Shown: positions 1,751-64,000 of the stretch, in pieces | How the letters are laid out: every line of letters starts with the position of its first letter | How positions within the stretch are numbered: the first letter of the stretch is position 1 | Origin: an uncultured Planctomycetaceae bacterium | Lineage (GTDB): Bacteria; Planctomycetota; Planctomycetia; Planctomycetales; Planctomycetaceae | Length of the DNA: 64,000 bases | Direction of reading: 5' to 3' | NCBI GenBank assembly: GCA_963815195.1 | Contig: CAWFGE010000009.1 | Span: 1 to 64,000 of the forward strand | Made by a program: the position numbers and the translations under genes | Notes under the pieces: model-generated | What the model was told of the DNA's origin: nothing | Seen by the model: the letters and a program-made list of their open reading frames with translations, nothing else | Database searches by the model: none

Positions 1751-2479
1751 CTATTTTGCTACTATTCGACGAATGTCTTCATCATATGGACTGAGAATAC
1801 CTTCAGACAGCCATGCGCTAAGCAACTGCTGTGAATAATCGTCATTCAAATCATCTTCCAATGTCTTTATTCCTTCCCCCCAGAAATCGGTTCCCTTCAA
1901 TGCCCGAAGTATATCAACCCTACAAGAGGGAGTTAATTGTGAAGGAGGAATAGCATGAAGGCAGAGATATGCTTGTCCTATAGAACACCTAGAGGCGATC
2001 TGGTCAACCAACCATTTAAAATCGGATGAATTATACGCATTTCGCCATTTTGTGAATGCAACTATTACAAGTTCCTTAATGAAGTTCGCAACAGTTTCCG
2101 TCAACTGATATGACTTATCCTTAAGAATCCCATTCAACGCCTCAAAGACATGATTTAAGCTATTTTCTTCCAAACGCATTGATGTGTTGAGAAGACAATC
2201 AAGCACGAAACTCGACCATCGAGGATTACTCGTATCTACACTAAGTTTGAGCAACATCAGTCGGACACCGGTTACGCGGAGTTCATTTTGGACAGGTCTT
2301 TCAGAATGTTTGGAGTTCTCAATCTGATATTCACCCAGCAAGAAATGCATGACCGGCCACAATGCATTTTTTTCACCCATCGGCAGGGTTGAAAAAAGAT
2401 CGAGCGAGGATGGACTCACTTTTCGATTTTTCTTAAGGTCTTGCTCAATCTGAGCGGTAAATGTCGCTATCTCAGTCAT
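1751..2479 (-). CDS. Putative immunity protein
   Basis: AT-rich ORF whose ATG (2479) overlaps the toxin stop (ATGACTGA); no recognisable family. Confidence 0.65.
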   Translation of the reverse strand: MTEIATFTAQIEQDLKKNRKVSPSSLDLFSTLPMGEKNALWPVMHFLLGEYQIENSKHSERPVQNELRVTGVRLMLLKLSVDTSNPRWSSFVLDCLLNTSMRLEENSLNHVFEALNGILKDKSYQLTETVANFIKELVIVAFTKWRNAYNSSDFKWLVDQIASRCSIGQAYLCLHAIPPSQLTPSCRVDILRALKGTDFWGEGIKTLEDDLNDDYSQQLLSAWLSEGILSPYDEDIRRIVAK

Positions 2480-3797
2480 GGAGGAGAAACTTAATAATTG
2501 TATCTGGTGATAATTTTCCGTCTTTGACGCGATTAATGATTTCAGCAGTCCGGTGGTGTCCACCGGTTAATGACAGATTTCCCGAGGAACCTGTTCCACT
2601 TATAGGATCATTCATTCTGAAACGAATCAATTCATCATCACTCATCCCCCCAATGGCCTTTGCTTGGTCTGGGAATATACCATGCTTGCGATTGACAATT
2701 GCCTTTTCGAGGTCACCTGCGCGAATTTCAGCAATTCTTGGGTTGAATTCCTCCAATGTAGGCACACGAGGGTTACGGGGAGTACCAAATGGTCTTCCTT
2801 TTTTATCGCCGCGTTGGATACGATAAAGAACATCCTCTGCTAGTTGGGAAAAATCACATAAGTCATCACCAGTATTATGCACTAAAACCCCTAGACCACC
2901 CACTCGATAGACGTGTTCGCCCTGGATTTCTAAGTTGTACACACGTTCGAGATTATTTCTGGCAACACTCTTGACAAATTTGGCGGTGTGGCCGCTGGCT
3001 TGGAGGGTCTCGCCGGGTTTTAGTTCATCGACCCGAATGAAGTGCTGGCGATCCACGCTCCAAAACCGGTGGTTGGGGGTGCTGCCGATGGGTTTGGCTT
3101 GGCCCTCGATGTAGATATTGATAACTTGAGCGGCGTCGTGGGTGAACTTGCCGGTGATGATCGGGCCTTTGCCGGGACTGATGGGTGGGCAGGGGCCGAT
3201 GGAAAGGACGAGGGCATCGTCGTTCACGCCGCACTCGGGGATCGAGATGTGGATTCGGCCCCCCACTTTGGCTTGATTCAGTTCTAGCCACCATAGCGGT
3301 CGCAGCAATTCAATCCAACAGCTTCCGCCAGGTTCTTTTTCCGCACGGAGATGGATCTGCCGCCACGTGGCAGGATCGACATCTATTCCGAAGCGGTCGT
3401 CGTAGTCTCCTTTCGGATTATGGGCGTTCGTCCGCTCGCCCAACTGCACTTCGCCGATCGGCTTTGTGCGCGGCCCGCTGCTCGATGACACGAAGCCCAG
3501 CCCCAACAGTCCGCCGACAAGAAGTAATGTGCCGATCGCCCACAACGGTCCCACCCAGGCCGGCGGTTTATGTGGCATGGAAAGCCGCGACTGCCGCTTG
3601 GATCTTCGAATCAAGGGATGTGCCATCTCGCACGGCGCTGATTTCTTGAGTGCTTTCTGTGGAGGGGGACAGGAAGGCTTTTCGGTGACGTTCGACGAAT
3701 CTGAGGTGGTGGTGGGTGAGCCGAACCCGGTGAAGACTTCATCAAGGGTGGCGAGGTCCATGCCCATCTGACTTTGTTTGGAAGCCGTCTGCGTCAT
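2472..3797 (-). CDS. Stand-alone polymorphic toxin: TM helix + partial Hint domain + ParB/Srx-like C-terminal toxin
   Basis: RBS GGGGAG before ATG 3797; TM WAIGTLLLVGGLLGLGFV; Hint motifs IGSTPNHRFWS and VYNLEIQGEHVYRVGGLGVLVHN; tail DPISG..LTGGHHRT. Confidence 0.8.
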   Translation of the reverse strand: MTQTASKQSQMGMDLATLDEVFTGFGSPTTTSDSSNVTEKPSCPPPQKALKKSAPCEMAHPLIRRSKRQSRLSMPHKPPAWVGPLWAIGTLLLVGGLLGLGFVSSSSGPRTKPIGEVQLGERTNAHNPKGDYDDRFGIDVDPATWRQIHLRAEKEPGGSCWIELLRPLWWLELNQAKVGGRIHISIPECGVNDDALVLSIGPCPPISPGKGPIITGKFTHDAAQVINIYIEGQAKPIGSTPNHRFWSVDRQHFIRVDELKPGETLQASGHTAKFVKSVARNNLERVYNLEIQGEHVYRVGGLGVLVHNTGDDLCDFSQLAEDVLYRIQRGDKKGRPFGTPRNPRVPTLEEFNPRIAEIRAGDLEKAIVNRKHGIFPDQAKAIGGMSDDELIRFRMNDPISGTGSSGNLSLTGGHHRTAEIINRVKDGKLSPDTIIKFLLHD

Positions 3798-4758: not shown

Positions 4759-6184
4759 TTATGAACGACTACTTTCAAGCACCGATCGCGTTAGCACATC
4801 CAAAACTCGCCCACCCGGAACGAGACTGATGGCTGTGTAGCGATGGGCAAGCGCCACCGGAACCAAGGCGTTTTCGTAGAGATCGCACTCGAAGTGTTGC
4901 ACGAGTGCCAATGATCTTTTCAAGTCAGAATATCGGGAGATGTCGGTTTTGATTGTGGAATGAAATTCGTTGCCGGCGCTCTCTTTCGAGGGGACGGGGT
5001 AAGGTAGGACCAAAACGAACGTCCGGCCTGAGTCCGTTTTATAGATGAAGTCCTGGCCGTAGTAGGTTTCAGCACCAAACCCGTTCTCCGAGGGATCACG
5101 GCCACTGAAAATGTGCTGGTAGCGATACTCGTCACCGATGGCTAGCAACCGACCGGGTTCTATGTAGGGGTCAAGCACTTTGCAGTGATCAACAACTTGG
5201 CCGGTTTTCTGCAATCCGATGACGAGCACAGGCGACATCCCGCGCGAGACCAGGTCTTGGTTGACTTCGTGCAGAAATCGTAGGATTGGACCGTGAAGCC
5301 AGGCGGCATTCCCAAAAATGGCCAGTGGGCCGTCGATGATGACGGCCAGTTCGGCAAGGCTGGACGGGGATGTCTGGTAGAGATAGCGAATGTAGTGCAT
5401 CGCCAAGAGATGCTCGGCGATCATCATGAAGCGGCCAATCGCTTCCTGATTCGACTGATACTCGTTCACTACTTCCCAAACGCGCAAGCAGTCTGCTGGA
5501 TAGATCGGTTCACCACAGGCGGGGCAGGTTTGCAGGTGGGGAACATCACGCACTTCGACAGGATTCAACTCGCGAGGATCCATGCAGTTGGGACACCGCG
5601 GCAGTCGGAGGCGGGCACGGTCGTTTGTGCCCAGTGGCCCCGTCCGCTGGCTTGCCAGATGAAACAACGTTGTTCGCAAACTGGTTTGCGGATCGTTCTT
5701 ACTGAAACGGGTTTTCTGAGCGTAAAGCTGCCGGTCCATCTCGGCACGGAAGGTGTGCTGGACGGACGCGTAGTTGCTGCCACGCACGTTGGCGCCTTGG
5801 CAGTACGAAACTCAAGGCATTGGCATCGTCATGCAAAGCGGCTACCCGGAAGGGATCGACAAATCGACCACCATCGACCCGCAGATCCCCAAAGCGGTCC
5901 ATGGCGATCAGAACGCACCCCAATTTCAGGTAGCCGACGCGGGTGTGTGGGAACCGATCGTCGAGACAGCTTTCATAGGGACTTCCATCGATCGCGATGA
6001 CTCGCGAAGGAAGCGGTTGATCCTTGACATCGGGAGCCTCGCAAAAGTGGCTCGCAATCTGTCGACCGGCTTCGTCCGATGGTGGAGTCAGATGTTTGCA
6101 CCCTTTAAGAAACGCCTGAATGTCCGGATTGCGAACCAAGTCGATGTGTGAGGACTTATTCGCGAGTTCTCCATCGTAGGGCAT
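4759..6184 (-). CDS. NurA-like nuclease with Zn-ribbon insert, frameshift near 5785
   Basis: VIAIDGS, IIDGPLA, GLQKTG, PVALAHRYTAIS motifs; CPNC..CPAC insert; directly downstream of HerA. Confidence 0.8.
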
Positions 6185-6233
6185 TGGAAATCATCCTTCC
6201 GCAAGGCTGGAGTCATCGTGTCTCGATGTTTGC

Positions 6234-8198: not shown

Positions 8199-8228
8199 AG
8201 TGAATCTCAGCTCAGTGGCCCAAAACAT

Positions 8229-9229
8229 TTAACCGGCGACCGGAAGATCAGACAGCGGATCTGCCGCCGGTCGAATCGCTTTCCCGCGTGAGAGGGCAGG
8301 CGTATGGTTTTCCGTCCATTCTTCCGCGCTCCGCCAGAGCTGGATTTCTCTGGGCAATTTTGGGAGGTTGGTCAACGCGACCTCGAAACTGCGGATCCCC
8401 CCGCCGTTGGTCGGCGAACTGTAAAGCATATGAACGTCAGTGCGACTCACCGCTGGCCCATACAGAGTCTCGACCTGCTCGGAGCAATCGTAGCTCAACA
8501 GCCAAGGCGACCTTTCGGAAAGCAAGTATTCTCGCAGCCTTCGATGATCCTCGCGCGGAAGAAAAAGCGATAGAGTCGATCCGCCTGCTCGAAGAACGGC
8601 GGATCCAAATAATAGAAAATGTCTTTCTTCCTTTTCGGCAGATTTCCGGCAGCACGCATCTTCTGGATGCGTGGAACAGCCGCAGCCCATGACAGGTTCC
8701 AGACGAACTTGACCTGGGTGCCCAGTGCTGCGGCTTGCTCGATTCGTCGCACAAGGGTTTCGCGGGGAAACCGGCAGTCAATAGAATACTTCGACTGCTG
8801 CTCGGTACCTCCGATCGGACCACCGGAGGGAGCCAGGATCCCCGAGAAGCTGGTTCGGTTCAAAAACAAGCAGCGCATTGCACCTTGGCGACGATCTGCC
8901 GGCACACATCTCTTCCAAAACCGCCACCGTTCGATCGTGACCTCGGTGGTGCGGACTTGCTCGATCAACCAGTCTGCATCGAAGAAAACCGTCTTCCAGA
9001 AGTTGGCCAAGTCAGGGTTACGCTCAACGAGACCGATCGACTCGACCTGGCCGTCCGCCAAGAGTTGCAGCGATACGCTCGCGCCACCGGCGAATGGCTC
9101 AATGAAGACCTTCGGGTTGAGATTGTTCGCCTCTAGACACTTGGCAACATACGCTGCAAAACGGCGTTTGGCTCCTGGATAACGCAACGGGCTTAGGATT
9201 GAAACCGGAGGACGAACCAAAGTCGCCAT
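8229..9229 (-). CDS. Dam-like (D12 class) DNA adenine methyltransferase, frameshift near 8560
   Basis: SPLRYPGAK, EPFAGGASV, FLNRTSFSG, YLDPPF, then WLLSYD in the adjacent frame. Confidence 0.88.
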
Positions 9230-46878: not shown

Positions 46879-47286
46879 TTACGGCGGTTCGTTATTCAAA
46901 AGGCGGAAGTGGTAAGGATAATCCTCTGCGCGTTCCAGCTTTCCACTCTCGTAAAACTCCTCCAATTGATTTGAAATGGATTCTTCCGAATAATCTCCCC
47001 CTTCTATACTCTCTAGATACTGACATAAGCGCCATGCATCAAAAATATCCTCGCCATCAACGATGCCAACATGTGCATCTACTACGGTGGAATCTTTGTC
47101 GCATCGAAAACGGATTCCGACACCGTGGGGGTGAGCTTCCCAAGTTAATTCTTCAAGTTTGATATATTTGGGGACAGTGTCGCGTAGGTTGAGTTCGTCC
47201 AATTGTCCATTTAGATTTGCTTGGAGTACCTTCAGTAGCGCTCGTTGGATTGCAACGAATGTCTTAATTATCTCGATCGTTAGCAT
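46879..47286 (-). CDS. Putative immunity protein (DUF6896-like)
   Basis: AT-rich, 10 nt after toxin stop; WEAHPHGVGIRF..FDAWRL. Confidence 0.65.
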   Translation of the reverse strand: MLTIEIIKTFVAIQRALLKVLQANLNGQLDELNLRDTVPKYIKLEELTWEAHPHGVGIRFRCDKDSTVVDAHVGIVDGEDIFDAWRLCQYLESIEGGDYSEESISNQLEEFYESGKLERAEDYPYHFRLLNNEPP

Positions 47287-47296
47287 AGTATTTCCC

Positions 47297-48675
47297 TCAC
47301 CAGCGATGAGATAATCCCAGGTTTTCTGCAGCCTCAGCAGCTTGTTGAAGCAACTTTTCCCCATACTCTTCGCTGACTTCTTCAATAATGACAGGGATCT
47401 TTTTTATGCCAGCAGAACCAGCCGCTCGTGCTCGGTGATGGCCATCGATGATGATTTTTCGACCTTTGACAATTGCGATCCGAATTGGCTTAGTTGGATC
47501 AAAGCCCTTCGTTTTCATCGACTTCGTGAGTCGTTTGAGTTGGCTGCTTGAAAATTCGCTTTTCAACTGCCTTCCATAAAGTTCTCGTACTGGCACTAGT
47601 AATCATGTGTCCCCTGTATTATGCACCAAAACGCCAATCCGCCCACTTGGTAAACATGCTCCCCTTGGACTTCCAGGTTATAGACGCGCTCCGGCTTCTC
47701 TCGCGGTAAAGCCTTCACGAATTTGGCGGTATGGCCAGCGGCTTGCAGGGTTTCGCCGGGTTTGAGTTCGTCGGCGCGGATGGTTCTTGCCGGTCCACGC
47801 TCCAGAAGCGGTGGTTTGGTGTGCTGCCGATGGGTTTGGGTTGGCCTTCGATGTAAATGTCGATGACTTGGGCGGCGTCGTGGATGAACTTGCCGGTGAT
47901 GATCGGGCCATCGCCGGGTTGGATTTTTGGGCAGGGGCCGATGGACAGGACCAAGGCTTCGTCATTCACTCCGCACTCGGGAATCGAGATGTGGATCCGG
48001 CCGCCCGCTTTGGCTTGATTTAGATCCAGCCACCATAGAGGACGCAGCAATTCAATCCGGCAGTTCCCGCCGCTCTCTTTTTCCGCCCGCAGAATGATCT
48101 GCCGCCAGGTCGCGGAATCGACGTCCACGCCGAACCGGTCGTCGAAATCTCCCTTCGGATTATGGGCGTTCGTCCGCTCGCCCACTCGCACTTCGCCAAT
48201 GGGCTTGGTATGCGGGCATCGCTGCTCGGCAAGAGGAACGCGATCGCTAATAGCAAGGTAACAATCCCGCCCGTCACGCCGGCCCAGGCGCGGCCGACCC
48301 ACTTGGGCGGTTTCTTGCGCTGCCCGGTATCTCTCGGTTTTGGTTTGGGCTTGGTAGGAACTTCCATCGGAATGGCTTCGATATTTGCAATCGGTCGGGA
48401 AATCAGCGGCGGATCTTCCTCCAGTCTATCAAGCAAATGGTTCTCCGTGAACTCCCGAAAGACCGCAGCATGGGCGGTTTCGATTTCGCTTGGTTCAAGA
48501 ATCACCGGCCCCTCGCCAGCCAAGGCCGATTGCAATTGCCGAGTGCTCCGGCCCGGAACTAGTTTGTCGAACAGTTCTTCCGCCTTTTGCTGCATGTCGT
48601 TCACGTCGGCCTTTTCCGCGGCCAACGCGGCGAGCGTCTCCGTCAACGCCGCTTGCAAGCCCTCTTTGAGTTCCC
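47297..48675 (-). pseudogene. Orphan toxin cassette 3: coiled-coil stub + TM + Hint + ParB/Srx-like toxin
   Basis: Homologous to main gene; several indels; tip SMKTKGFDPTKPI....IIIDGHHRARAA. Confidence 0.8.
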
Positions 48676-48703: not shown

Positions 48704-49189
48704 TCAATCGGTAAGTATCAGGCTTATAATAGTTTCTCGATCGTAAAATGAATTTGAAGTATCACCCACTGGGCATAAGTCATACGCTGCATAGGACCGA
48801 TCGAATTCCTGCACATCGAAGCTAACGCGAATCGACTTATACTTTGGCTTCACTGCGTTCACAGACAAAACCCGACCCTCTGTCCCATAGGGCGCCAGCC
48901 CCCGACCTGGGATTGTCACGACGACGACCGGATCCCCTACTTTGTAATGAGATAGAACGGACGCTAGTTCCGCTAAGGCTTGGCATAGCTGCGAATCCCC
49001 ACCATTACAATCCATCGCGAAAATCAATACACGGAGTTTCGCAGGGGAAAGGCTACATTTGAGGACTCGTTCGGTAGAATCAACGAACTCCGGCAAAGAA
49101 AATCCTTGTCCGCGAAGTACCGCTTCCAACCTTGCGAACTGAGATACAGTTAAATTGAGGGAATATTCATAATCCATCCAAATCACCAT
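48704..49189 (-). CDS. Putative immunity protein
   Basis: Directly follows cassette 2 toxin; lower GC; no family recognised. Confidence 0.6.
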   Translation of the reverse strand: MVIWMDYEYSLNLTVSQFARLEAVLRGQGFSLPEFVDSTERVLKCSLSPAKLRVLIFAMDCNGGDSQLCQALAELASVLSHYKVGDPVVVVTIPGRGLAPYGTEGRVLSVNAVKPKYKSIRVSFDVQEFDRSYAAYDLCPVGDTSNSFYDRETIISLILTD

Positions 49190-49199
49190 TAGCGACGTA

Positions 49200-50738
49200 C
49201 TACGGAGGACAGAGTTTCTTGAAATGTCCCGAATTTAGTCCAGAAGCTGGCATTTGTTTGCCGATCTTCTCCCAGATTTCGGGGTGATGCTTGCTGACAG
49301 CCTCAAGAGTCTCCATTGTAGTCTTCAATGCCTGCTCTGGACCGACCTTGTTGCTTGCACGAATAACTTGGTTCATCCCTTGAAGTGCTTGAAGTTTTCT
49401 GTGATCAAGATGCCGCCCTCTTTCTCAACCATCTCACGAATCGCATCGTCGGTCATTCCAGACGTAACCTTTTGCACATTATATCCCGCATTCGTGAGAT
49501 CGTCTACCATATAAAAGACATTCTCATCGATCCAGATCATGGGCAGTTCGCCTGTTGTGTTGTGGACGAGTACCCCCAATGGTGAAACTCGATAAACGTG
49601 TTCGCCTTGGATTTCCAGGTTGTAGACGCGTTCGGGGTTTTCTCTCGGGACGGCCTTCAGGAACTTTATAGTGTCACCGGCAGCTTGCAGGGTTTCGCCG
49701 GGTTTTAGCTCATCGGCCCGCACGAACTCTTGGCGGTCAACCGACCAGAAGCGGTGGTTGGGGGTGCTGCCGATGGGTTTGGCTTGGCCTTCGATATAGA
49801 CATCGATGACCCGGGCGGCGTCGTGGATGAACTTGCCGGTGATGATTGGACCATCGCCGGGGGCAATCGGCGGGCAAGGGCCGATGGAGAGAACCAGGGC
49901 TTCGTCGTTCACGCCGCATTCGGGAATCGAGATGTGGACTCGGCCGCCGACTTTGGCTTGATTGAGATCTAGCCACCAGGTTGGCCGGAGCAATTCGATC
50001 CAGCAGTTCCCGCCGCCTTCTTTTTCGGCCCGTAGAATGATTTGCCGCCAGGTCGCGGGATCGACATCCACGCCAAACTTGTCGTCGAAATCTCCTTTCG
50101 GATGATGGGCATTCGACCGCTCGCCCAATCGCACTTCGCCGATGGGTTTCGTGTGCGGCCCGCTGCTACTCGGCAAGAGAAACGCCAGCGCCAACAGCCC
50201 TGTCACTATTACACCGGTCAGCCCGGCCCAAGCGCGGCTGACCCACTTGGGCGGCTTGTTATTCTTCCTGGAACCTCTAGGCTTTGGTTTCGGCTTGATA
50301 GGCGCTTCCATCGGAACGGCTTCGATATTTGCAATCGGTCGGGAAATCAGCGGCGGCTCTTCCTCTAGCGTATCAAGAGAATTGCCTTTCGTGAACTCCA
50401 GAAACACTTCCGCGCGGGCGGCTTCGTCTGGCTCGACAACAACCGGCCCCTCGCCGGCGAAGGCCGGTTGCAATTGCGGCGTGCTCTGACCCGGGAAGAG
50501 TTTGTCGAACAGTTCTTCCAGCTTAACGAGCAGTTCGCCGAAGGGCATGAAGTTCGTCACGCTATTCGCGAAGGGGTCGAATTCCTCCGACAGGTCTTCC
50601 CCAGTCCCCAGCGAGTTTCCAAAGCGTTTCTTCCACAATTCGTAAGCCAGCGGACTGAGCACTAGAATCCCCAACGCGCTAACCACCAGAAACACCTTCA
50701 GCTTCTCGCCGCCCTCGCCGTCCAGGTGTACTTCGGTC
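49200..50738 (-). CDS. Orphan toxin cassette 2: TM-TM-Hint + PIN-like (DUF5615/Mut7-C-like) toxin
   Basis: Homology starts at TEVHLDGEGG; VLVHN then IWIDENV..GY.V..GMTDDAI...ILITENFKHF; an indel near 49376 extends the frame to TAG at 49200. Confidence 0.78.
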
Positions 50739-50761: not shown

Positions 50762-50971
50762 CTACGCCAGAATCTCTATTCCAATTAATTCCTTTTTCGA
50801 ATCAAAATCCAAATAGACACGCGGCCCCTTATAGTCTTCAATAATCTCGTGAAGCCCTATCGTTCGGGCCACACAGCCAGATGTAGGTTGTTTCGGAAAT
50901 CCAGGTAACTTGATGTACGCAGTAGCTGTATTTGTTGAACTCGCTTCAAACTGAATATTATCAATTGACAT
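50762..50971 (-). CDS. DUF2283-like immunity/antitoxin
   Basis: AYIKL..VART..VYLDFDSKKELIGIEIL. Confidence 0.72.
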   Translation of the reverse strand: MSIDNIQFEASSTNTATAYIKLPGFPKQPTSGCVARTIGLHEIIEDYKGPRVYLDFDSKKELIGIEILA

Positions 50972-51071: not shown

Positions 51072-53748
51072 TCAGTTGATTACTGTTCGCAAAATAGCTT
51101 TTCCTTTCTTAGTGAGTTCATAAACCGCCTTTCCATTTCCAAATGGCACCAAAATTGAATCAGCACGTCTTGGATCCGCAATTGTACCTACCGGTAAGCC
51201 ATTCTGGTTGATGGATTTGGTCAGAGATCTTAACCCCGCACTGGCTGACTTTGTATCAGGGGACACACCTCGTTGAAATGCTCGCTCTGCTGCATGCGCT
51301 ATATCTGAATTGAGTGCCTTTTTAAGTCGAGGTAAACCAAGATGATCTAGGAGGCTATCTGTTGCAGAATGTACGTTAGGCAGTCCGGGGCCGAGGGGAT
51401 ATGTATTATGCACTAATGCGCCAAGGTGGCCCACCCGGTAAACATGTTCGCCCCACACTTCCAGGTTGTAAACAACCTCCGGCCCCGCGCGGGGCGTGAT
51501 GCTTGTGATGCGGCAGGTGCCTTGCAGGCGGGTGTGGACCTGTTCGCCTTCTTTGAGCATTTCGGCCGGGACGAATTCCTGGCGGTCTTCTGACCACCAC
51601 AAATGGTTGGGGGTGGTGCCGATTTTTTCCCGGCCGTCGATTTCGATGTCTAGGATGCGATTCACATGGTGACGGAAGATGCCGGTGACCAGTGGTCCCT
51701 TGCCGGGAGCGGGCTCGGGACAGGGATCAATCGAAACGATCTTCGCTAACCCGACCACTCCCATTTCGGGCATTGACAGAGGGACGGATGCACATGGTTG
51801 GGCATCGGCGGCCGCGATCCATTGCGGGGATCGCGCCAGATCGAACTCAACCTCTCCCCCGTTGGGTTTGGGAAGGCGGAAATGAATGAGCTTCCATGTT
51901 TTCGGATCCGGTTGCGGCAGATGGGGACCGACCTCCGAGCGAATCGGATTTCGGCTTTCCGTGCGGTCAAAAATCTTGACTTCGCCGATGGGCTTGGTAT
52001 GCGGCGCACCGCTTGGCAACAGGAATGCCAGCGCCAAGAGCAGCGTCACAATCCCGCCCGTCACGCCGGCCCAAGCGCGGCCGACCCACTTGGGCGGCTG
52101 ATTTTTCTTCCTGGAACCTCTAGGCTTAGGTTTTGGCTTGACGGGCGATTCCATTGGAACGGCTTCGATATTTGCAATCGGTCGGGAAATCAGCGGCGGC
52201 TCTTCCTCTAGCGTATCAAGAGAATTGCCTTTCGTGAACTCCAGAAACACTTCCGCGCGGGCAGCTTCGTCTGTCTCGACAACGGCCGGTCCTTCGCCCG
52301 CAAAGGCCGGTTGCAATTTTGCAGTGCTCTGGCCGGGGAAGAGTTTGTCGAACAGTTCTTCCAGCTTAACGAGCAGTTCGCCGAAGGGCATGAAGTTCGT
52401 CAAACTATTCGCGAAGGGATCGAATTCCTCGGGCAGGTCTTCCCCGACGCCCAGCGAGTTTCCATAGCGCTTCTTCCACAATTCGTAGGCCATCGGGCTT
52501 AAGATCAAGATCCCCAATGCGCTCACGACCAAAAACACGTTCAGCTTCTCGCCGCCTTCGCCATCGAGGTGCACTTCGGTTTCGTACACGAAGCAACCCC
52601 TTCCTGTGAAGATCTTGCGAACGGGGCAGGGCAAGAGCTCGGCCACCGCTTTGCCGACCGCCGGGAGTTTGAGGAACTTGCTCACTGGCCGGGCGATGAA
52701 CGCGGCCGCTTTGAACAAGCCCTTCCCCACGAAGCCGACGAGTTTCCCGAACCCCGCAGCAACCGGCGTGAAGGAGAACGCCAGCGTCATCGTGCCTTCA
52801 AACATTCGGCCGCGAGCGAAGTAAATCGTGGCATTGACTCTTTCGATCCAGTTGCTGATCGCCGTCCCTACGACCGGCACAAACGACGCCTTCAATGCCA
52901 AAATGTGCAGTTCGTTTTGCAACACGTCCAGCACGTATTCGTTGGACTCCTTGATGAACGTGCCCACGAAAATTTCGGTGTAATGCAATTGCTGGTTTTC
53001 GAGCGATTCGATTTTGGCGGACTTTTCCAAGTCATATTGGTCTTTGAGGGCCTGGGAATCGGCTATCACCAGCGACATCGTGGCCTGGTTGGAATTGATC
53101 CGGTTCGCCACGTCGCGTTCGGCGGCGTCTTCTTGCCGATGAGCTTCCGCGGCTTCGTCCGCCTCGCGGGCCCGCAGGTTGCGCTCGGCGGAGGTCAAGT
53201 CGTGCTTGGCCTGGGCCATTGCCCGGTTTGCCTGGGCCTGGGCCTGCTGAAGTGCCAAGGTCGCCTGGTTTTTGATGTCCTGGAGGATCGCCTGGCCTTC
53301 GGTCTGCTCCTCAGTCAACTCGGCAATCGCCTTTTGCAGCATGTCGTTGACGTCGGCCTTTTCCGCCGCCAATACGGCGAGCGTCTCCGTCAAGGCCGCT
53401 TGCAAGTCCTGTTTGAGTTCCTGGAGGGACTGCTCGGCATCCTTGGTCAGCGAGAGGAAGCGGCCGATGGGGGCGACCGGCAGGGCCGGGTCTTCCACGA
53501 ACGGCGAGCGGTTGTACTCGGCTAACACGCCGATGACCTGGGCGCTGATCGTGGCCAGCGAGCCGAGTTCGGTGCCGGTATAGATCTCGCCGATCATGTC
53601 GTAGGCGTCGAGCGAGCCGTTGATGTCGTTCCAGACCCACACGTGCCAGATGCTGCCGTAGCCGTCGTTGGGGTCGGGATCGGCGGAGGGATCGCCCCCG
53701 GTGCCCGCCGTGGCCCAGCCCATAAACGACCCGTAGGCCACCAGATAG
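51072..53748 (-). CDS. Orphan toxin cassette 1: coiled coil + PT-TG-like + split Hint + DUF4258/BECR-like toxin
   Basis: ~2.35-kb near copy of main gene 54661-57010; tip HAAERAFQRGVS..ILRTVI; no natural start at the homology boundary. Confidence 0.82.
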
Positions 53749-56700
53749 GAGCAACCTTTAAGCTCATCCGTCGAAGCTACGCGCTTCCATCGGAGTCGGG
53801 CCAAACACGTGAAAAAACGTCTTCGAGTATCGGATCGTTGTTGTCTAGTGGGCACCAATCGTCGGGCGGGGTAGCAGATTCAATCTCGTCCCACGTTCGT
53901 TCCTGGAGTTTCTTCCAATCATCATATTCCCATCCAGAGTAAGAAACGAAGCTGGGCGTGGGCCACCTCGTTCGGGCATCGATGCGTCGTTCTCGAAGCC
54001 TCTTGCCACGATTCCATCCGTGTCGCAAGTACTGGCATAGAGTTCGGACAAGTGCCTCCATAAAGGCCTCACGAAGCTTTCCCTTGCTGTCTGCGTCAAC
54101 ATAGAAGGCTTCCTCGAACTGCCTTAGTGCGAGAAATTTTGCATCGTCTGCGCCTGCTGTCTGGCGCAGACTGCCGAACATTTCACCAAAAGACTCACCC
54201 CCTCTCGACATTACAAATGCAAACGCATCATCATAGCCCAAGCGTTGGACTAATGAACGAAACCTCTGTTGCCAATCTGAATTCCAAGCTTCCATCGCCA
54301 TGTCAATCCTCAATCAGCGTAGGGCAGGATCGGCACGTCCCTCAGTCCCATTTCTCGCATGAACCTGTACCCTTCCTTCCAGATTTCCCTCGGTGTCAAT
54401 TGTCGACCCGCCTTCAATTCGGCAGCCGCGAGTCTTTCCATCATTCGTTCGTTCCACTTCATCGTGTGTAAAGCCGAGTGGGTTCCTTGGTCAAGAGCAA
54501 CGGTGACTTTATCGATGTCAAAGCCGCGATTTCTGAACCACTGACGATTCTCCTGGGGAAAGATGTGGTGACGCGGGGGACGCGCGCCGCCAGCACCAAC
54601 CTTGTTCGTGATTCGCAGATTACGTTTTGCTAATTGCTCCGTGACGTCGTCGGGATATACATTGTGCACTAACGCGCCCAGTTGGCCCACCCGATAGACA
54701 TGCTCTCCCCAGATTTCCAGGTTGTAAACAATCTTCGGCCCGGCCCGGGGCGTGATGTTGGTGATGCGGCAGATCCCGTGCAGGCGCGTGTGGACCTGTT
54801 CGCCTTCTTTAAGCACTTCGGCCGGGACGAATTCTTGGCGGTCTTCGGACCACCACAGGTGGTTGGGGGTGGTGCCGATTTTATCCTGGCCGTCGATTTC
54901 GATGTCTAGGATGCGGTCTACATGGTGGCGGAAGATGCCGGTGACCAGCGGCCCTTTGCCGGGAGCGGGTTTGGGACAGGAACTCATCGAAAGCACTTCG
55001 GCTAAGCCGACGACGCCCATTTCGGGCATTGATAGAGGGACCGATGTGCCGGGTTTAGCGTTCGTGGCCGCGATCCATTCCGGGGAACGCGCTAGCTCGA
55101 AATCGATTTCTCCGCCTTCGGGTTTCGGAAGGCGGAAATGAATGAGCTTCCAAGTTTTGGGATCCGGTTGCGGCAGATGGGGATCGACCTCCAAGCGCAC
55201 CGGATTGCGGCTTTCCGTTCGGTCAAAGATCTTGACTTCGCCGATGGGCTTGGTGTGCGGCCCGCTGCTTGGCAATAGAAATGCGAGCGCCAACAGCCCC
55301 GTCACTATCCCGCCCGTCACGCCGGCCCAGGCGCGGGGAATCCACTTGGGCGGTTTGTTTTTCTTTCCCGAATCTCTCGGTTTTGGTTTCGACTTGACAG
55401 GCGCTTCCATTGGAACGGCTTCCAGATTCGCAATCGGTCGGGAAATCAGCAGCGGGCCTTGCTCCAGTGTATCCAGCAAATGGTTTTCCGTGAACTCCCG
55501 AAAGACTCCAGCATGGGCGATTTCGTCTGCGTTATCTCTTGGGGGACTCGCTACTTCACCCGCGAAGGCCGGTTGCAATTGCGGCGTGCTCTGGCCGGGG
55601 AAGAGTTTGTCGAACAGTTCTTCCAACTTGGCGAGTAGATCGCCGAAGGGCATGAAGTTCGTCAAGCTGTTCGCGAAGGGGTCGAACTCTTCGGGCAGGT
55701 CTTCACCGATCCCCAGCGATTTTCCATAGCGTTTCTTCCACTGGGCGTAAGCCATCGGGCTTAATATCAGAATCCCCAAGGCGGTGACGACCAGGAACAC
55801 ATTCATCTTCTCGCCGCCCTCGCCGTCGAGGTGCACCTCGGTCTCATAAACGAAGCAACCCCTTCCCGTAAAGATTTTGCGGATGGGGCAGGGCAAGAGC
55901 TCGGCCACCGCTTTGCCGACCGCCGGGAGTTTGAGGAACTTGCTCACTGGCCGGGCGATGAACGCGGCCGCTTTGAACAAGCCCTTCCCCACGAAGCCGA
56001 CAAGTTTCCCGAACCCCGCAGCAACCGGCGTGAAGGAGAACGCCAGCGTCATCGTGCCTTCAAAATACCGGCCGCGAGCGAAGTAAATCGTGGCGTTAAC
56101 TCTTTCGATCCAGTTGCTGATCGCCGTCCCCACGACCGGCACAAACGACACCGCCGTTGCTATGAAGTGTAGTTCGTTTTGCAACACGTCCAGCACGTAC
56201 TCGTTGGACTCCTTGATGAACGTGCCCACGAAGATTTCGGTGTAGTGCAATTGCTGGTTTTCGAGTGTCTCGATCTTGGCGGACTTCTCCAAGTCGTATT
56301 GGTCTTTGAGGGCCTGGGAGTCGGCTATCACGAGCGACATCGTGGCCTGGTTGGCGTTCACGCGGTTGGCCACGTCGCGTTCGGCGGCGTCTTTTTGCCG
56401 ATGGGCCTCGGCGGATCCGTCCGCCTCGCGGGCCCGCAGGTCGCGCTCGGCGGAGGTCAGATCGTGCTTGGCCTGCGCCATCGCCCGGTTCGCCTGGGCC
56501 TGGGCCTGCTGCAGCGCCAAGGTCGCCTGGTTTTTGATGTCCTGAAGGATCGCTTGGCCTTCGGTCTGCTCTTCGGTCAAGTCGGCAATCGCCTTTTGCA
56601 GCATGTCGGTGACGTCGGCCTTTTCCGCCGCCAATATGGCGAGCGTCTCCGTCAGCGCCGCTTGCAGATCCTGTTTGAGTTCCTGGAGCGACTGTTCGGC

Positions 56701-57010
56701 ATCCTTGGTCAGCGAGAGGAAGCGGCCGAGGGGGGCGACCGGCAGGGCCGGGTCTTCCACGAACGGCGAGCGGTTGTACTCGGCTAACACGCCGATGACC
56801 TGGGCGCTGATCGTGGCCAGCGAGCCGAGTTCGGTGCCGGTATAGATCTCGCCGATCATGTCGTAGGCGTCGAGCGAGCCGTTGATGTCGTTCCAGACCC
56901 ACACGTGCCAGATGCTGCCGTAGCCGTCGTTGGGGTCGGGATCGGCGGAGGGATCGCCCCCGGTGCCCGCCGTGGCCCAGCCCATAAACGACCCGTAGGT
57001 CACCAGATAG
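51405..57010. repeat. ~2.35-kb direct repeat pair (51405-53748 and 54661-57010)
   Basis: Near-identical sequence ending at CCAGATAG in both copies, with scattered substitutions. Confidence 0.9.
53777..54301 (-). CDS. Putative immunity protein for DUF2380-like toxin
   Basis: Follows main toxin stop; AWNSDWQQR..LGY..EALVR..PPDDWCP..DPIL. Confidence 0.7.
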   Translation of the reverse strand: MAMEAWNSDWQQRFRSLVQRLGYDDAFAFVMSRGGESFGEMFGSLRQTAGADDAKFLALRQFEEAFYVDADSKGKLREAFMEALVRTLCQYLRHGWNRGKRLRERRIDARTRWPTPSFVSYSGWEYDDWKKLQERTWDEIESATPPDDWCPLDNNDPILEDVFSRVWPDSDGSA

Positions 57011-60000
57011 ATGATGTTGTCAAAGGCGTACAACTGGGCGTCGATCGTGCCCACGGCCCAGGCGCTGAGGTCGTCCCCGGCGGTGATGTTCCCCGACAGC
57101 GTGCCGTAACTGATGAGGTACACGTCATCGCCGGCGGAGCCGAACGCGGTGAGGGCTTGCGTGGCCATCAACTGGGCCAGTCCGTCCACGTCCATGTTGG
57201 TGACGCTCAAGAAGCCGAAGCTGGTGGCGTTGAAGTTGCCGCCCGCAGTCACGTCGGCCGTGACACCGAGCCCGAAGAGTTCCACACTCCCGCCCGCGAT
57301 GATCGTGATATCCAGGAAACCGCCGATGCTGGCGGCCAGCACCTCTTTGGCGGCGCTCGCATCCACGTCCGCATTGCCGTTGCTGAGCACTGTCACGGAC
57401 TCGTTTGTGGAGGTGAGCGAAAGCGAGGTCAGCCCAGCCTCCGACCAGGCGAACACATCATCCCCGGCGGTGGCGGTCGTGGTGGTGATCTGTCCCAGGG
57501 CGAACAAGTTCAGAGTGCCACCGACCGAGATCTGCATGCTGTTGATGGCGTCGAGCGATCCCACGTCCGCCGATCCGCCCGCCGTGACGGTCCCGGTGAG
57601 CGAACCCGTGGCGAAAACGTCGGCTTCGCCGGCCGTGGCGATAATGTCCCCGTTGTAGCTGCCCATCACATTGACCGAGGCGGACTGGCCGGCCGAGACG
57701 CTGCCATCCGCATCGCCGAAGGCCAGGAGGTCTGCGAAATCGCCCGCATCGATCGTCCCGGAGTATGTGCCCAGCGCAGTGACGGAAGCCGAGCCACCCG
57801 CGGTCACGTCGGATTCCAATGTCTGCCCGTAGGAAGCCACGGTCGCATCGCCGCCGGCCGAGACATTCCCGGTCAAATCGGACAGGGAGACGACGTCCGC
57901 ATCGCCGCCCGCGTTGACATCGCTGCTAAGGTTGCCGACAGTCGTCACGGTGGCCTTGCCCGTGGTGGCGGTGACGGTTTGGGACAACTCTCCGAGCACC
58001 CAGACGTCCGCGTTCCGTCCGCCCGTGACCGTGGCCGTCAAATCGGAGTATACGGTGACGGTGGCATCCTGGCCTGCCGAGACGGAGGCCACCGCCATTG
58101 AATACACGGTCACGTCCGCATCCTGGCCCGCCGTGACGGGATTGGAGAGTTGGCCGAAGGACCACACGCTCGCATTGCGGTCCGCGTCCACATTGGCTCC
58201 GACCTCCCCCCACACGGTCGCGTCCGCATCGCGGCCCGCATCGATCGCCCCCGACAGATCGGAAAACGTCCACACGGAAGCGTCCAAGCCGGCCGTCACG
58301 TCGCCGTCGACGTTTCCGCCGGCCAGAACACTGGCGGATCCCGCCGTGGCGGTGACATTCCCGGAAACAACAAGGATTGCGGAAGCGGACGCATTCCGCC
58401 CGCCCATGACATCCGCACTGATGTTTTGCAGCGCGACCACCAAGGCATCCCGGCCGGCCGTGATGGCGGCATTGGAATCGGCATGGGTGGTCAAGGACGC
58501 ATCGCGGCCTGCATCGATCGTCCCTGCTGCACTGACCGTGCCTTTGGAGAACACCGAAGCGTCCTGTCCAGCGTCAACCGCCGCCTGGAGGGCGCCAAAC
58601 GTTGAGCACGTTGGCATCGCCCATTTCTGCGGTCACGGCGGCCGTCACATTGCCAAAGGCGAACACGCTGGCATTTGCGCCGGCCGTCACGGATTTCGTA
58701 AGTTGTGCGGAGGTTGTGACCGTGGCATCTCCCGTGACGGCGGTGATCGTGCCGGAAATATCGCCATCGAGCGCCGCGCACGGTGGCATCCGTCCCACCC
58801 TCGATCGTCGCCGAAACCGCTTTGCCAGCGAGCACGCTCGCGGATTCCGCGGCGTTGACCGAACCGGCCACATCTCCTTTGGCGGCGACGCTCGCGGAAC
58901 CCCCGGCGGACACGGTGCCATTGAAATCTGCCAGGGAGATCACATCCACGCCGCTTCGATCGGACGTGTATGTGCCCGTGGTGGCGGTTTCGTCCTCGGC
59001 GAGCGACCCGGCGTCGATGTATTCCCGCGCTGGAAGGTTCCGGTCAGATGGTTTTGAGCGAAAACGTCCAGCCCCCCCTGGTAACTCCGCACATCCAAAT
59101 CCACGGTGTCCAAACCGGTGATCGTGATCTGATCGCGGGCCCGGACTTTGCCGTCGAGCGTGCCGAACACGACAAGCGTGGCTTCTTGGGGATCGCTGCC
59201 GGAAGACGAGGACGAACCGGCACAAGCCTCCAAATTCGCGTTCCCTCCCGCGAACACGTTGACGGAACCTTGTTGGGCGATGCCGACCGTGCCATCGTTG
59301 ATGTTCGTCGCACGGAAATGCCGACATCCCCTTCTTTGGATGTAATGTTGGCCTTGAGGTCCGTCGCTCCGGTGACGCTGGCATCCTGTTGGGCGGTGAT
59401 GGTCGCTCCGCTGATCGTTTTATTTCCCCAAAGCGATGCGCTCCCGGCGTCTGGAGGTGATCGTGATATTGGAAACGGTATCCCAACCGGTCACGGAAGC
59501 GTATTGCCCCGCCTCGACTTCCCCACCGCTCAGTTTCCCTTGGGCGATGATGGTGGCATTCCCGGCGGCGTCCGTCTTGGCATCTGTGACCGTTCCAAAC
59601 GCCTCAATTTGGATATCGCCCGAGGATGTGACGGTGGCCCTGTGATCCCCGTGCACGGTCATGCTGGCGACAGCGACGAAACCGGGCGGTGGTGGATCAG
59701 TGCCCTCGGTGCCTGCGTTGATCGTGCCGCTCAGATTGCCCCAGACATCCAAGCTGATACTTCCGGAAGCATTCAGCGTAGCATTCAAATCGCCCATCAC
59801 GAGCGCATTGATGTAGCCATTCTGCCCGTGACGCTGACGCCTTGTTCGACCGATTCCCAAGAGGTAATATCCACAAACCCGCCGGCTGTGATCGTGGAGT
59901 CTTTTATCCCCTCACCGACTTCGATGGAGATTGCACCTTCATCTGCCGTGACGTTCCCATTCAAGTCGGCCCAACTCTTTACGGCGACGCCACCGCTCGA

Positions 60001-63000
60001 ATGAACCGTGCCGGTGATCGACTCCAGCGCACGGTTGCGATCCAGGACTCATCATCACCTGTGGTGGTCAAGTCGCCTTTCATGGCCCCGTACGTCATCA
60101 AGTCAATCGACGTATTTGCGGTAATGTCAGCAGAGGAGTCCCCCACGGCTTTCACCGTGACCGAATCCGCATTGGTGATGGTGCCCTTTAATGCATTGGA
60201 TTCAATCTTCACCTCCCCATCGGCCTGCGAGTTGAGATCCACGTCTCCCGCCGCGTAGACGGTGAGTTCGCCGACGTTACTCCCAATGTTGGTGTTGCGG
60301 ATCCCGTCATAGGTAACGAGTTCGACTTTAGAAACGAGATACTGTTCGCCATACGAGGGATTGATGTCGGGAGCCTCAATGGTATCTTTTGCGATCAGCC
60401 AGGCCTTTCCGACAAAGCGCAACTTTTTGACGTCCATCTTGCCCGTGCTGAAGACAAATGGCGAGGAAGTGGCAGCTTCGATGAGTTCCGTGCGGATGTA
60501 ATTGCTCTCCACCGTGGCAGTTATTTCTGCTTCGACTTTGGATGTAATGGTTCGCATGGCCTGGTCCGTGACGGACCCTTTCTTGCTGATCACGTCGCCC
60601 TTGGAGTCTTGATACGCCCAAATGTTGGTGTCGCCTTCGCCTTGCACTTTCTTGGTGACGGATCCCCACGAAATCACTTCGACGCTCCCCGCTTTTCCGA
60701 TGACATCGCCCGTTACGGAACCGTAGGCTGTGATGATGACGCCGCCCCCATTCGCGGTCACGTTGTCGCTCACCGTATCCCAGGATTCAAGAGTGATCGA
60801 ACCCGTTTGGGAAACAATTTCGCCTTCAATCGGTCCCAGGGCCCAGACCACCCCCAGGCTTCCGCCGGCCTCAATCCCGTTGGAGATCTTGCCGAACACC
60901 GTGACGTCGCCGATGTTGCCACCCGCCTTGATGTGGCCTTCAATTTGCCCCTCGATCCCGAGAAAGGGATATTGTCCGGTTTGGGCCGCGTATAAGACCC
61001 AGGCCTCTTTGACCCGGTAACCATTCCAAACCCGCCTGCGGCAGGGCGTCATTGCTGTAAACGGATTCCTGGGCGGAAACCACCATTCCCCCAAGGCCAG
61101 AATTGCTCCGATATTTCCCGTCGCAGAAACGTCGTTTTTGATGCTGCCGCCGCGGGAGGTTCCCGAAGTGATTTCCCCAATATCTTCACCCGAATTGACG
61201 CTCGCGCCAATATTCCTTACCGGCCTGGACGAGCCCGATATCTCCTGAGGTTGTTTTAATAGTTCCATTGATGTTTCCGGCGGTCGATGTGATGCCAGTC
61301 AATGTCTGCGCATCCGCATCGCTTCCGATCCGCTCGTCCGCCGAAATCGACCCGTTAATATCATAAGTCGCTGAGATCGAATCGATGTTGTTTCCGGCAG
61401 AGATCTCGGCATTGATGGATCCAAAATAGGCCGTCACGCTTCCAGAGATCCCTCGGAGGCGGTGATGGTGCCCGTGATGGACCCAGATCCCGTGTAGCCT
61501 CCGTACCCGCCCGCTTCGATGGCGTCAATATCCGTCTGGGCCGTGATGGTGGCATCTTCGATGGAGCGGTCGGCGTCCACGGACGTGATTTTCCCCGCCG
61601 TGCTTTCAATGGTCGGGGAACCTGCAGAACCTGTAATGGACCCGCCGGTCACCAGGTAGGCGGCCGCCTCAACCTCGCCAATGTCGCCCACCGCGCTGAT
61701 AGTCGAATTGGTAATATCTCCGCCGCGGCGAATCAAAAATCGTCCCCGAGGATCCACCGGCACAGCCGGCTTGCACTTTGGCAATGCCGCCCGTGTCGGC
61801 CATAATATCCCCGGTCAGGTTCCCGCCCGCGGTCACATGATCGGTAATGGACACCGCGCGGATGCTTCCCGTAATGTCCCCACCGGCCTGTACATACTGA
61901 ATGTCTCCCCGGCGGTAATCGTGCTTTCGATTTTCTGGTCCGCATCGACCGTATCGATTGTCCCGCCGGCCGTAATGTCGCCCGTCAAATCGTCATCCGC
62001 ATCGACGGTAGTGATGTTTCCATCCGCATCGACCGTCATGGTGAGATTGCGTCCAGAATCGAGCGTACCGATCCCGCCGGTCACATCGATGCTGCCGGAA
62101 AGATCGAGCCCGGCGGTGACGGAGGTAATCCCCGCACCCGAACCAGTCGTGGATATTATCGCATCGACAGTGCGTCCCGCGGTAATTGTCCCAATTGACG
62201 TCCCCGCAGTGATTGTCCCGCGGACATTCCTGGTGGCGGAAACCGATCCCACCGCGTCACTGGCCGTGAGGCTCACACCGCTTCCGAAATCTCGCACTGG
62301 CCGAGGTCACATCTCCGTCTGTCGCATCGAGTGAAGCGGTCAAAGTTCCACCGGCGTCCACCGAAACAGACGCCGCAGTGATGGTGCCATCAACATCCCG
62401 TCCGGCGGTGAGGCTCAATCCTCCGTAGCCTCCGTACCCACCCGAGGAACTGCTGCCGTCCGCCGTCAAGTCCGCTTTGCTGTCCCACCCGACCGTCACC
62501 GAGTTGATATAATTCCCGGCGTGGATCAAAGCCGTGCTGTCGATATTGTCCGCCACAGTGATGGTGGAGATATCGCCGGCGGCATCAACCGTCCCCGCGA
62601 CGCCGCCATACGCCTCGACTTCCTCGATGTCCCCACCCGTCGCCTTCACGCTGCCTGCAGACGTCAAATCGCCGTCCACGTGCACTCCTTGATATATCGT
62701 CCCGCCTGCCTGCACTTGAGCGCTGATGTCCCCGCCAACCCAGACGGCAAAGTCGCCCGAATTGGGATCCCCAATGTCTCCCCCGGCGGTCAGATTCGCG
62801 CGTGATGTCCGTATTCACGTGCGTGTTGAATATGGCCCCTCCCGCATCCACTGTGCTATCCAGGACGTATAGGCTGAGGTCGCTGATATCTCCTGTAGCA
62901 TCCACCGATTGGGTTTGCCTGGCGGTGAGGGAGCCAATATCTCCGCCAGCGGTCACAGTCCCGATCTGACCGAAGCCACTTGCCGAAGACCAGCATCCGC

Positions 63001-64000
63001 CATATCCGCCATAGGCGCTGGCGGAGGTGACATCGCCCGTGGCCGTGATATTGCCGATGTTGTCGGCGGACACAGAAACGTTGAGCCCGGAAACGTTTGT
63101 GACATTCCCACCTGAGAAAACAGAAACATTCCCGCCCGCCGAGACGTCATTGACAATGTCCCCGTCCGCACTGAGGGACAAGTCGCCGCTGGAGCTGCCA
63201 TTCCACGTGAGTTGTCCGCCGGAAACACTCACGCCCACATCGGAACCGCTTCCCGAGACGGTGACGGTTTGCCAGCCCCAATCATCGACATAGACCGTGT
63301 CACTGCCCGTATTCGTGACAAGGAGCAGGCCCGGTCCTGCCCAAGATTCGCCGGCGTCCAACTGAAGATCCTCCGGGTCTGTGGCCAATTCGGGCCGTTG
63401 CAAAGAACAGACCAATTCGACCTGATAGGGGCCACTCGTGGTATATCCGTCGGTAGTCACGAATTCGAAACGTCGTCCCGCTTCCGGTATAGCTGAAGGT
63501 GCCGTCCGGGCTGAGGCTCACCCCGTTCGCCGAACCGTAGATTTGTGCGGTAACATGATCTCCGTCCAAATCCGTCTCCACATCCAACACATCCCCTGTA
63601 ATAGTTCCTTCCAACGCTCCATAGCCATAGCTGCCATAACTTCCGACTGTCTCGAAATAATCCTGAGCGACGGCCCGCCAGGGGCCGACAGAAAGCGAGT
63701 TGTCAACCTGTATATCGACGGTTTGGGTGGAGCTAATACTGCCCTGAGGATCGAGGACGTGAAAGGTAAAACTGTCGCTGCCCACATAGCCGGGTGTGGG
63801 CGTATAGTCGAGATCTGCCGTCGTCGTTAAGCGCGAGACTTCCATGGGAAACGTCCGTGTCCAGCACGGCTTTGAGCAACGTGCGAACCTCGTCAGTGGC
63901 GTCCTTTAAGAGGCCCTGACCAGGGCCGACGCTGAGCGACTGGTCATGATATACATTGTAAGATTGGTTGCTGGCTGTCGGCACATTGTTATTGACGGTG
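54310..64000 (-). CDS. Giant polymorphic toxin (5' end outside window): Ig/cadherin-like repeats, long beta-helix-like G/A/D/S/T/V repeats, coiled coil, PT-TG-like, split Hint, DUF2380-like tip
   Basis: YTPTPGYVGSDSFTF repeats near 63.3-64 kb; VTAGGxAxV-type repeats continue across indel-split frames; tip HHIFPQE.RQWF..RG.DID..TV.L....H..LH. Confidence 0.85.

Follow-up and report, generated by a model that had tools for sequence, protein, structure and literature searches.

A predicted membrane-anchored split Hint domain in planctomycete toxins, with halves encoded as separate genes in many relatives

The toxin locus and its interrupted Hint domain

The window analysed here (a stretch of 64,000 nucleotides, positions 1-64000 of contig C9 of a Planctomycetaceae genome) contains a locus that looks like a polymorphic toxin array, in which toxin tips of the DUF2380, DUF5615-like and ParB-like types are each followed by a small gene (Table 1). 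These small genes are putative immunity genes by position only. The initial annotation spoke of a giant toxin, but the gene upstream of 58617 is broken into many frames. Long broken frames are frequent in this assembly, and the carrier gene 5' of 58617 may or may not be intact. Read-derived contigs over the locus are scattered, short and of low depth, and none spans the insert described below; one has extra bases at 60959-61080, which weakly suggests that the frame breaks upstream stem from assembly errors.

Table 1. Features of the toxin locus in the window
Feature	Position	Strand	Evidence or remarks
Main toxin, C-terminal open frame	54310..58617	-	1435 aa: repeat carrier, coiled coil, pre-toxin region, TM-interrupted Hint, toxin
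Hint N-half (Cys1 + first strand(s), 11 aa)	55825..55857	-	pLDDT 97; part of 2LWY superposition
TM1	55738..55803	-	KD19 2.22; helix in model
Basic cluster after TM1, loop side	55720..55737	-	Sequence; same bias family-wide
Amphipathic loop helix with D-x-[LVIF]-F	55600..55626	-	Helix 71-85 in model; motif enrichment
Basic cluster before TM2, loop side	55345..55395	-	Sequence
TM2	55273..55332	-	KD19 1.91; helix in model
Hint C-half: block B TxxH (54873-54859), block F, terminal His-Asn	54661..55254	-	Invariant residues, weak PT-HINT match, fold
Second insertion in Hint C-half: beta subdomain of about 70 aa that is characteristic of this Hint lineage	54955..55164	-	No clear fold match
C-terminal toxin domain, DUF2380 / SitA6-like	54313..54660	-	Pfam E 2.3e-7; TIGR02269 partial E 1.7e-6, below cut-off
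Putative immunity gene overlapping main toxin stop	53777..54313	-	Position only; no family matched
Upstream carrier repeats (Big_9 / cadherin-like), several frames, on to about C9:67800	58618..64000	-	
Cassette 1, with a different toxin after its pre-toxin region and its complete TM-interrupted Hint (52595-51405)	51072..53858	-	
Small gene (69 aa) after cassette 1, putative immunity	50762..50971	-	Position only
Cassette 2: both TMs, no Cys1, DUF5615-like toxin	49373..50737	-	HintC 48% identical to main
Small ORF after cassette 2, putative immunity	48704..49189	-	Position only
Cassette 3: TM2 only, HintC, ParB-like toxin, several frames	47297..48658	-	
DUF6896 gene, putative immunity of cassette 3	46879..47385	-	Pfam E 5.8e-23
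Cassette 4: unrelated leader with D-x-V-F, TM2, HintC, toxin; without Cys1	2472..3797	-	45 kb away
ORF after cassette 4, putative immunity	1751..2563	-	Position only

In the main gene the Hint domain is interrupted shortly after it begins. The initial annotation had placed about 185 residues between the start of the Hint and its continuation, and every motif that it quoted lies where it said within the frame 54310-58617 of the minus strand, with the His-Asn ending at 54661. From the Cys1 codon (55857) to the TKPI motif (55254) we count 201 residues, as against 13-14 in insert-free relatives, so that the insert amounts to 187 aa. The hydrophobic helices proposed for both of its ends were recovered: the 19-residue Kyte-Doolittle maxima of TM1 and TM2 (2.22 and 1.91) compare with no more than 0.82 for the loop and 1.22 for the remaining Hint, and both segments are helices in the AlphaFold2 model; together with a charge bias, these data are the basis of the TM assignments. 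TM1 codons differ between the main gene and cassette 1 by 9 synonymous and 3 non-synonymous changes. A Pfam search with the insert alone returned no family. A Met just before TM1, which has a good Shine-Dalgarno (SD) site (-6.4), was discarded as a start, as it is Leu in cassettes 1 and 2.

Cassettes 1-3 share DNA with the main gene. The insert was held to be conserved in cassettes 1 and 2, and it is indeed 80% and 78% identical there, but cassette 2 lacks Cys1, beginning after a stop five codons past its place. The Hint lineage of cassette 2 changes right at the insert border, from 78% identity to the main gene in the insert to 48% in HintC (the part of the Hint that follows the insert), and recombination has therefore occurred at the locus. 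Within cassette 3, at 48020-48658 (minus strand), the carrier coiled coil is fused directly to the loop helix, a deletion having taken Cys1 and TM1. Cassette 4 has its own ATG at 3797 with an SD duplex of -7.2 kcal/mol, and its leader and HintC are 35% and 46% identical to those of the main gene. ORFs at 4759-9229 (minus strand) are putative genes for an ATPase like HerA, a nuclease like NurA, which lies in two frames, and a DNA adenine methylase. A paralogue on contig C10 (452048-464830, plus strand), preceded by a further HintC cassette (C10:450225-451481, plus strand), is a 4261-aa giant toxin with an LEPR-type leader. Its Hint is interrupted at the same site by an insert that likewise has two helices but no detectable similarity to that of the main gene. 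The neighbouring giant toxin at C9:73172-86434 (minus strand, several frames) has an ordinary, insert-free PT-HINT.

Fold and class of the Hint domain

An AlphaFold2 model built from 55 sequences has pLDDT values of 97 for residues 1-10 and 92-98 for residues 201-399. It contains three helices (residues 18-44, 71-85 and 172-194), and its loop is disordered. Over the range 1-399 it superposes on the bacterial intein-like (BIL) domain 2LWY of C. thermocellum (Z 16.7, rmsd 1.7 A, 130/138 aligned), which is also the best Foldseek match (E 1.4e-8). The first strand is thus predicted to complete the Hint fold across the insert, as the initial annotation had supposed. Cys1, the block B TxxH and the terminal His-Asn are all present in the main Hint, as in type A BILs, and T330, H333 and H398 are invariant across the 55 aligned sequences. 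Against PF07591 (PT-HINT) the main ORF scores 17.5 bits (E 0.005; gathering score 27.7), the match being broken by the inserts, and cassette 2 scores 29.9 bits; in the ESM Atlas the only matches, a lead at most, are PT-HINT clusters under 0.9. The +1 residue, Val in the main protein, is variable (S/A/T/N/G/Q/V/K/M) and is Cys in 0/38 main and 0/62 cassette rows. A fold search with the 70-aa beta subdomain gave no clear match (best Z 4.6).

The two-helix insert in planctomycete relatives

We gathered 244 loci, whose named records point to Planctomycetota (one is labelled merely 'bacterium'), with 282 distinct HintC frames, 72 of which have the Cys1 motif (60 after 70% clustering). This Hint lineage is carried by 90 of the 251 searched genomes of the family to which the present genome belongs, and 3,440 clusters (50% identity), a count that includes helix-free forms, match at E <= 1e-30. 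Insert lengths among the 60 Cys1 Hints are bimodal. The 22 short inserts (<=58 aa) are all without a TM call, and 38 long ones (131-334 aa) have two helices in 26 cases at a Kyte-Doolittle threshold of 1.5 and in 36 at 1.2, a value that their loops never attain. A separate set of 138 further proteins, from a profile search that favours TM-bearing forms, has both helices in 47 of the 51 members with Cys1. The layout of the insert is thus kept in planctomycete relatives and its sequence is not, and fused TM inserts are found with ordinary PT-HINT as well. In a sister lineage (L214, L239, L242, L244) the same site holds helix-free, acidic, Trp-rich inserts of 40-58 aa, some with D-x-L-W.

Basic residues mark the cytoplasmic side of membrane helices (the positive-inside rule). 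Lys and Arg are more frequent on the loop side than on the outer side of the helices in 26/26 and 47/47 proteins of the two sets (73/73 overall), which agrees with the basic clusters that had been noted on the inner sides in the main gene. Because of this bias the loop is predicted to be cytoplasmic, the topology proposed in the initial annotation.

Naturally split genes and cassettes with their own starts

The insert lies after the first 11 residues of the Hint, which is where engineered 'S1' split inteins are divided. In at least 18 related loci the halves are encoded as two genes; the main gene in the window is fused. The N-half gene of such a split consists of the carrier, Cys1, the strand, TM1, a basic tail and a stop, and the next gene has its own start followed by TM2, HintC and toxin. 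Nine splits found from the C side (L005, L094, L133, L174, L192, L197, L205, L208, L226) have the second start 13-108 nt after the stop with SD values of -4.0 to -10.2, and all three frames occur; L103 is a tenth. Three split units with tails 34-83% identical stand in one locus, L174, and the split of L103 recurs in L197, from another genome, at 71% identity. From the N side, a profile of the N-half matched 56/251 genomes, and 38 matches in 37 stretches were classified as 16 fused, 7 split, 9 ending in a stop and 6 running off the locus. One of the seven splits duplicates L094, one is weak (L317) and one has no SD (L305). Among the nine ending in a stop, three are split with an ordinary PT-HINT C-half, three are non-Hint proteins and three are unassigned or frameshifted. 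In the L311 split the genes overlap as ATGA (SD -7.4). The N side thus adds eight firm split loci and one weak one, giving 18 firm loci overall, and fused main genes outnumber split ones by 16 to 10 among the newly classified N-side matches. The HintC-positive list includes 50 of the 56 N-half-matching genomes, a co-occurrence of little weight, since some of these genomes went into the profile; the profile also missed the window's own N-halves, and with this insensitive profile no N-half was found in G576, which has three TM2 cassettes.

Splits are present with two Hint lineages. In a quick tree of 126 HintCs (L139 left out) the TM-type rows fall into a single group with 103 members (SH-aLRT 88), with one no-TM row inside and one TM row outside; nine split-labelled rows (eight splits and the C-half after L164) require nine changes, at least six of them forced, and recombination could also scatter such rows over the tree. 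In the giant carriers at L164:4432-18999 (minus strand) and L048, TM2 is the last element, HintC and toxin being absent, and in L164 an own-start TM2-HintC-toxin gene comes after the carrier.

Cassettes without Cys1 comprise 161 stop-bounded frames, 85 of which begin shortly before TM2, 48 inside HintC and 19 of which are helix-free, the remaining nine being flagged with two hydrophobic segments (two are main genes missed by the pattern); the frame search favours intact HintCs, which biases these proportions and leaves the following start-codon test unaffected. In 62 TM2 cassettes (80% clusters, with C-halves of split genes included) an in-frame ATG precedes TM2 in 53 cases, against 19 in other frames and 30 +/- 3.5 expected at the Met rate of the loop, and an SD site is found in 38, against 7 in other frames. 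All 62 keep the terminal His-Asn, and cassette 4 of the window belongs to this class. The cassettes without TM2 have no ATG excess (17/36 against 19.1 expected). Internal translation starts in the loops of fused genes were considered and discarded, SD sites being about as frequent there as in carrier regions (27% vs 24%, p 0.40). At L154:13324-18500 three own-start TM2-HintC-toxin genes stand in tandem, a small gene after each, and no carrier gene was found within 13 kb upstream. Whereas these cassettes mostly have their own start, orphan CdiA modules are described as devoid of start codon and ribosome-binding site (PMC4725963).

A possible mechanism

We propose, with a probability of about 0.62, that these proteins contain a membrane-tethered split Hint of the type A BIL kind, whose halves assemble in cis or in trans and which couples a carrier to exchangeable toxin tips. 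The assembly, topology and chemistry of this split Hint are what we infer from the features above. With the loop in the cytoplasm, the two Hint halves would come together at the periplasmic side of the inner membrane, and TM2 would provide the C-half, in cassettes as in split genes, with an N-terminal signal or anchor. Confinement to the membrane would let the short Cys1 strand dock into the HintC of the same chain or of any cassette. By analogy with BILs, a Cys1 thioester would then form and the terminal Asn cyclise, after which the freed toxin amine would ligate to the carrier or both parts would simply be released, the helices and the Hint remaining in the membrane.

Separately encoded halves and own-start cassettes without Cys1 point, at the sequence level, to assembly in trans, which is likely the working mode. 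The covalent link between the helices is dispensable, as the halves are separate genes in many relatives. A complex model of the main strand-TM1 segment with cassette 4 reached 0.89, the best control 0.30, with runs agreeing in at least 67% of contacts and partner pLDDT of at least 71; 116/157 solved pairs attain the pass mark, as do 2/215 mismatched ones, and this model passes by its likeness to solved Hint folds. Its interface consists of partner residues 1-14 only, with no confident TM1-TM2 contact. Engineered S1 split inteins with an N-fragment of 10-12 aa trans-splice in 4 of 14 cases and fail in 10 (PMC3620165).

In type A BILs, a Cys1 thioester, cleavage at the terminal Asn and ligation via the freed amine without a +1 nucleophile are on record, with cleavage products dominating (PMC4031507). 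Because the products of split genes are never one chain, cleavage alone would leave carrier and toxin apart; ligation would give the carrier of split genes a purpose, which is an argument and not a result. By this analogy, ligation of toxin to carrier stands slightly short of even odds. It is a real possibility, though to our mind somewhat less likely than not, that planctomycete toxin diversity arises by protein trans-splicing at the membrane, a TM-anchored Cys1 carrier being ligated to whichever separately expressed, signal-anchored Hint-toxin it met. A disulfide link between carrier and toxin was rejected, as a Cys upstream of Cys1 shows no covariation with Cys at +1 to +3.

If correct, one carrier gene could deploy several toxins without recombination and one cell several warheads, and the family would represent a natural split BIL, a natural membrane-anchored split Hint and a non-recombinational toxin polymorphism. 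Natural trans-splicing, known from soluble enzymes inside the cell, would be extended to proteins that are anchored in the membrane and act outside the cytoplasm, and the family offers a direct test case for the role of the Hint in polymorphic toxins (to cut or to ligate) and for the use of orphan toxin cassettes without recombination. Naturally evolved 11-residue split Hints would be useful for protein ligation.

Alternative explanations

The initial annotation saw in the insert a disposable tether acting in cis, with Hint cleavage freeing carrier and toxin; the cassettes would then be silent recombination donors. The majority of fused forms fits this, as does the dominance of cleavage in type A BILs (PMC4031507); cassettes 1-3 share DNA with the main gene, and the lineage switch in cassette 2 shows recombination. 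The two helices are conserved, but the insert also marks a natural split point, and at least 18 split loci, the three split copies in one locus and the excess of SD-ATG starts just before TM2 are left unexplained; classical orphan modules have neither start codon nor ribosome-binding site (PMC4725963). We regard this explanation as unlikely. To read the splits and cassette starts as products of decay or of sequencing error, with the insert as a tolerated expansion without function, is very improbable. Many records are metagenome bins, the present assembly has many broken frames and four splits are in-frame stops, but splits are also seen in G455, a genome in one contig, in G285, which is 100% complete in 20 contigs, and in a named isolate record (L205); they use all three frames with SD starts and recur in paralogues, TM codons change mostly synonymously and the charge bias holds in all 73 cases; this reading is already largely refuted. 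Planctomycetes synthesise sterols or hopanoids. A Hedgehog-like reaction, in which the membrane-held Hint would transfer the carrier onto such a lipid and not onto the toxin, could draw on the active site held at the membrane and on the Hedgehog Hint 1AT0 among the fold matches (Z 15.0), but the His-Asn is followed directly by the toxin, as in type A BILs, and the sterol-recognition region of Hedgehog/Hog proteins was not found after the Hint; we consider it highly improbable.

The carrier's crossing of the membrane is the weakest step of the split-Hint reading. Full-length carriers of relatives begin with an Arg-rich LEPR-XLL leader and no hydrophobic stretch; the LEPR-XLL model (NF012209) scores above cut-off in 2 of 6 scanned N-termini of relatives and weakly in a third, and the motif was not found at the 5' end of the window's main gene. 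LEPR-XLL proteins are described as lacking known signals (10.64898/2026.03.19.712371). The insert could instead be mainly an export device, uniting a tail of the kind found at the C-terminus of secreted planctomycete giants (helix, basic cluster, D-x-hydrophobic-F) with a Sec-type signal of the toxin half in the part that is cut away, any action in trans being a by-product. This idea, compatible with the split-Hint reading, draws on the motif D-x-[LVIF]-F, which occurs in 22/38 loops (1.1 when shuffled) and in 25/47 of the separate protein set (1.7), and within the last 45 aa of 11/47 large D/T/N-rich ORFs of this genome (1.8) and 7/28 LEPR-XLL proteins of at least 470 aa from three complete genomes (1.2; two toxins left out), as against 53/2359 other ORFs of this genome (49). 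The motif may be a C-terminal signal of planctomycetes for export or sorting that has not been described before, and the insert may thus join the end of one gene to the beginning of another. However, the motif is present in about half of the loops and in the last 75 aa of only 4/12 split N-halves, LEPR-XLL toxins with ordinary Hints manage without it, and no export machine was identified; as its main role, export seems improbable to us. Large secreted-type proteins of this genome and of the L245-L272 stretches carry the motif at their C-termini more often than expected. Some non-Hint proteins (L327, L331, L337, L258, L267), which also speak for an export device, terminate like TM1 in a short Gly/Ala-rich helix and a basic cluster, possibly a generic C-terminal anchor.

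Comparison with known systems

The notable point is a widespread, predicted membrane-anchored split Hint with separately translated toxin halves. We found no earlier account of toxins whose Hint is split or interrupted by membrane segments in the literature covered, where subscription papers are thinly represented; architectures of this kind might be among those in Additional File 1 of PMC3482391. With type A BILs and PT-HINT domains (PF07591; 2LWY) the planctomycete Hint has in common the fold, Cys1, the TxxH, the terminal His-Asn, the want of a fixed +1 nucleophile and the position ahead of a variable toxin. It differs from them in being broken or split after residue 11 by membrane helices and often in an additional 70-aa subdomain. 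C-terminal sorting signals (PEP-CTERM, GlyGly-CTERM, LPXTG) are helix-plus-basic anchors from which a surface protein is cut. TM1 with its basic cluster resembles them; the proposed cutter, however, is the protein's own Hint strand with its partner half, and no sortase.

Natural split inteins, as in fractured genes, belong to host proteins encoded in two genes, as the Hint halves are in at least 18 of the related loci. They rebuild one host enzyme and have a conserved Cys/Ser/Thr at +1, whereas the planctomycete C-exteins are unrelated toxins with a variable +1. Trans-splicing of a BIL was reportedly engineered by Aranko in 2013. The engineered S1 split inteins (PMC3620165) share the split near residue 11 and a small N-strand that completes a large C-fragment; the planctomycete Hint differs from these and from natural split inteins in the predicted membrane anchor on each half and in its variable, alternative toxin C-exteins. 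Finally, the polymorphic toxin loci of the CdiA, MafB and Rhs types (PMC3482391, PMC4524018, PMC4725963) likewise combine a giant repeat carrier, a pre-toxin Hint and variable C-terminal toxins with small downstream genes, cassette arrays and signs of recombination. The planctomycete loci stand apart from them in that most of their cassettes begin at a start of their own and bear a signal-like helix, and in that some of their main genes have no toxin of their own.
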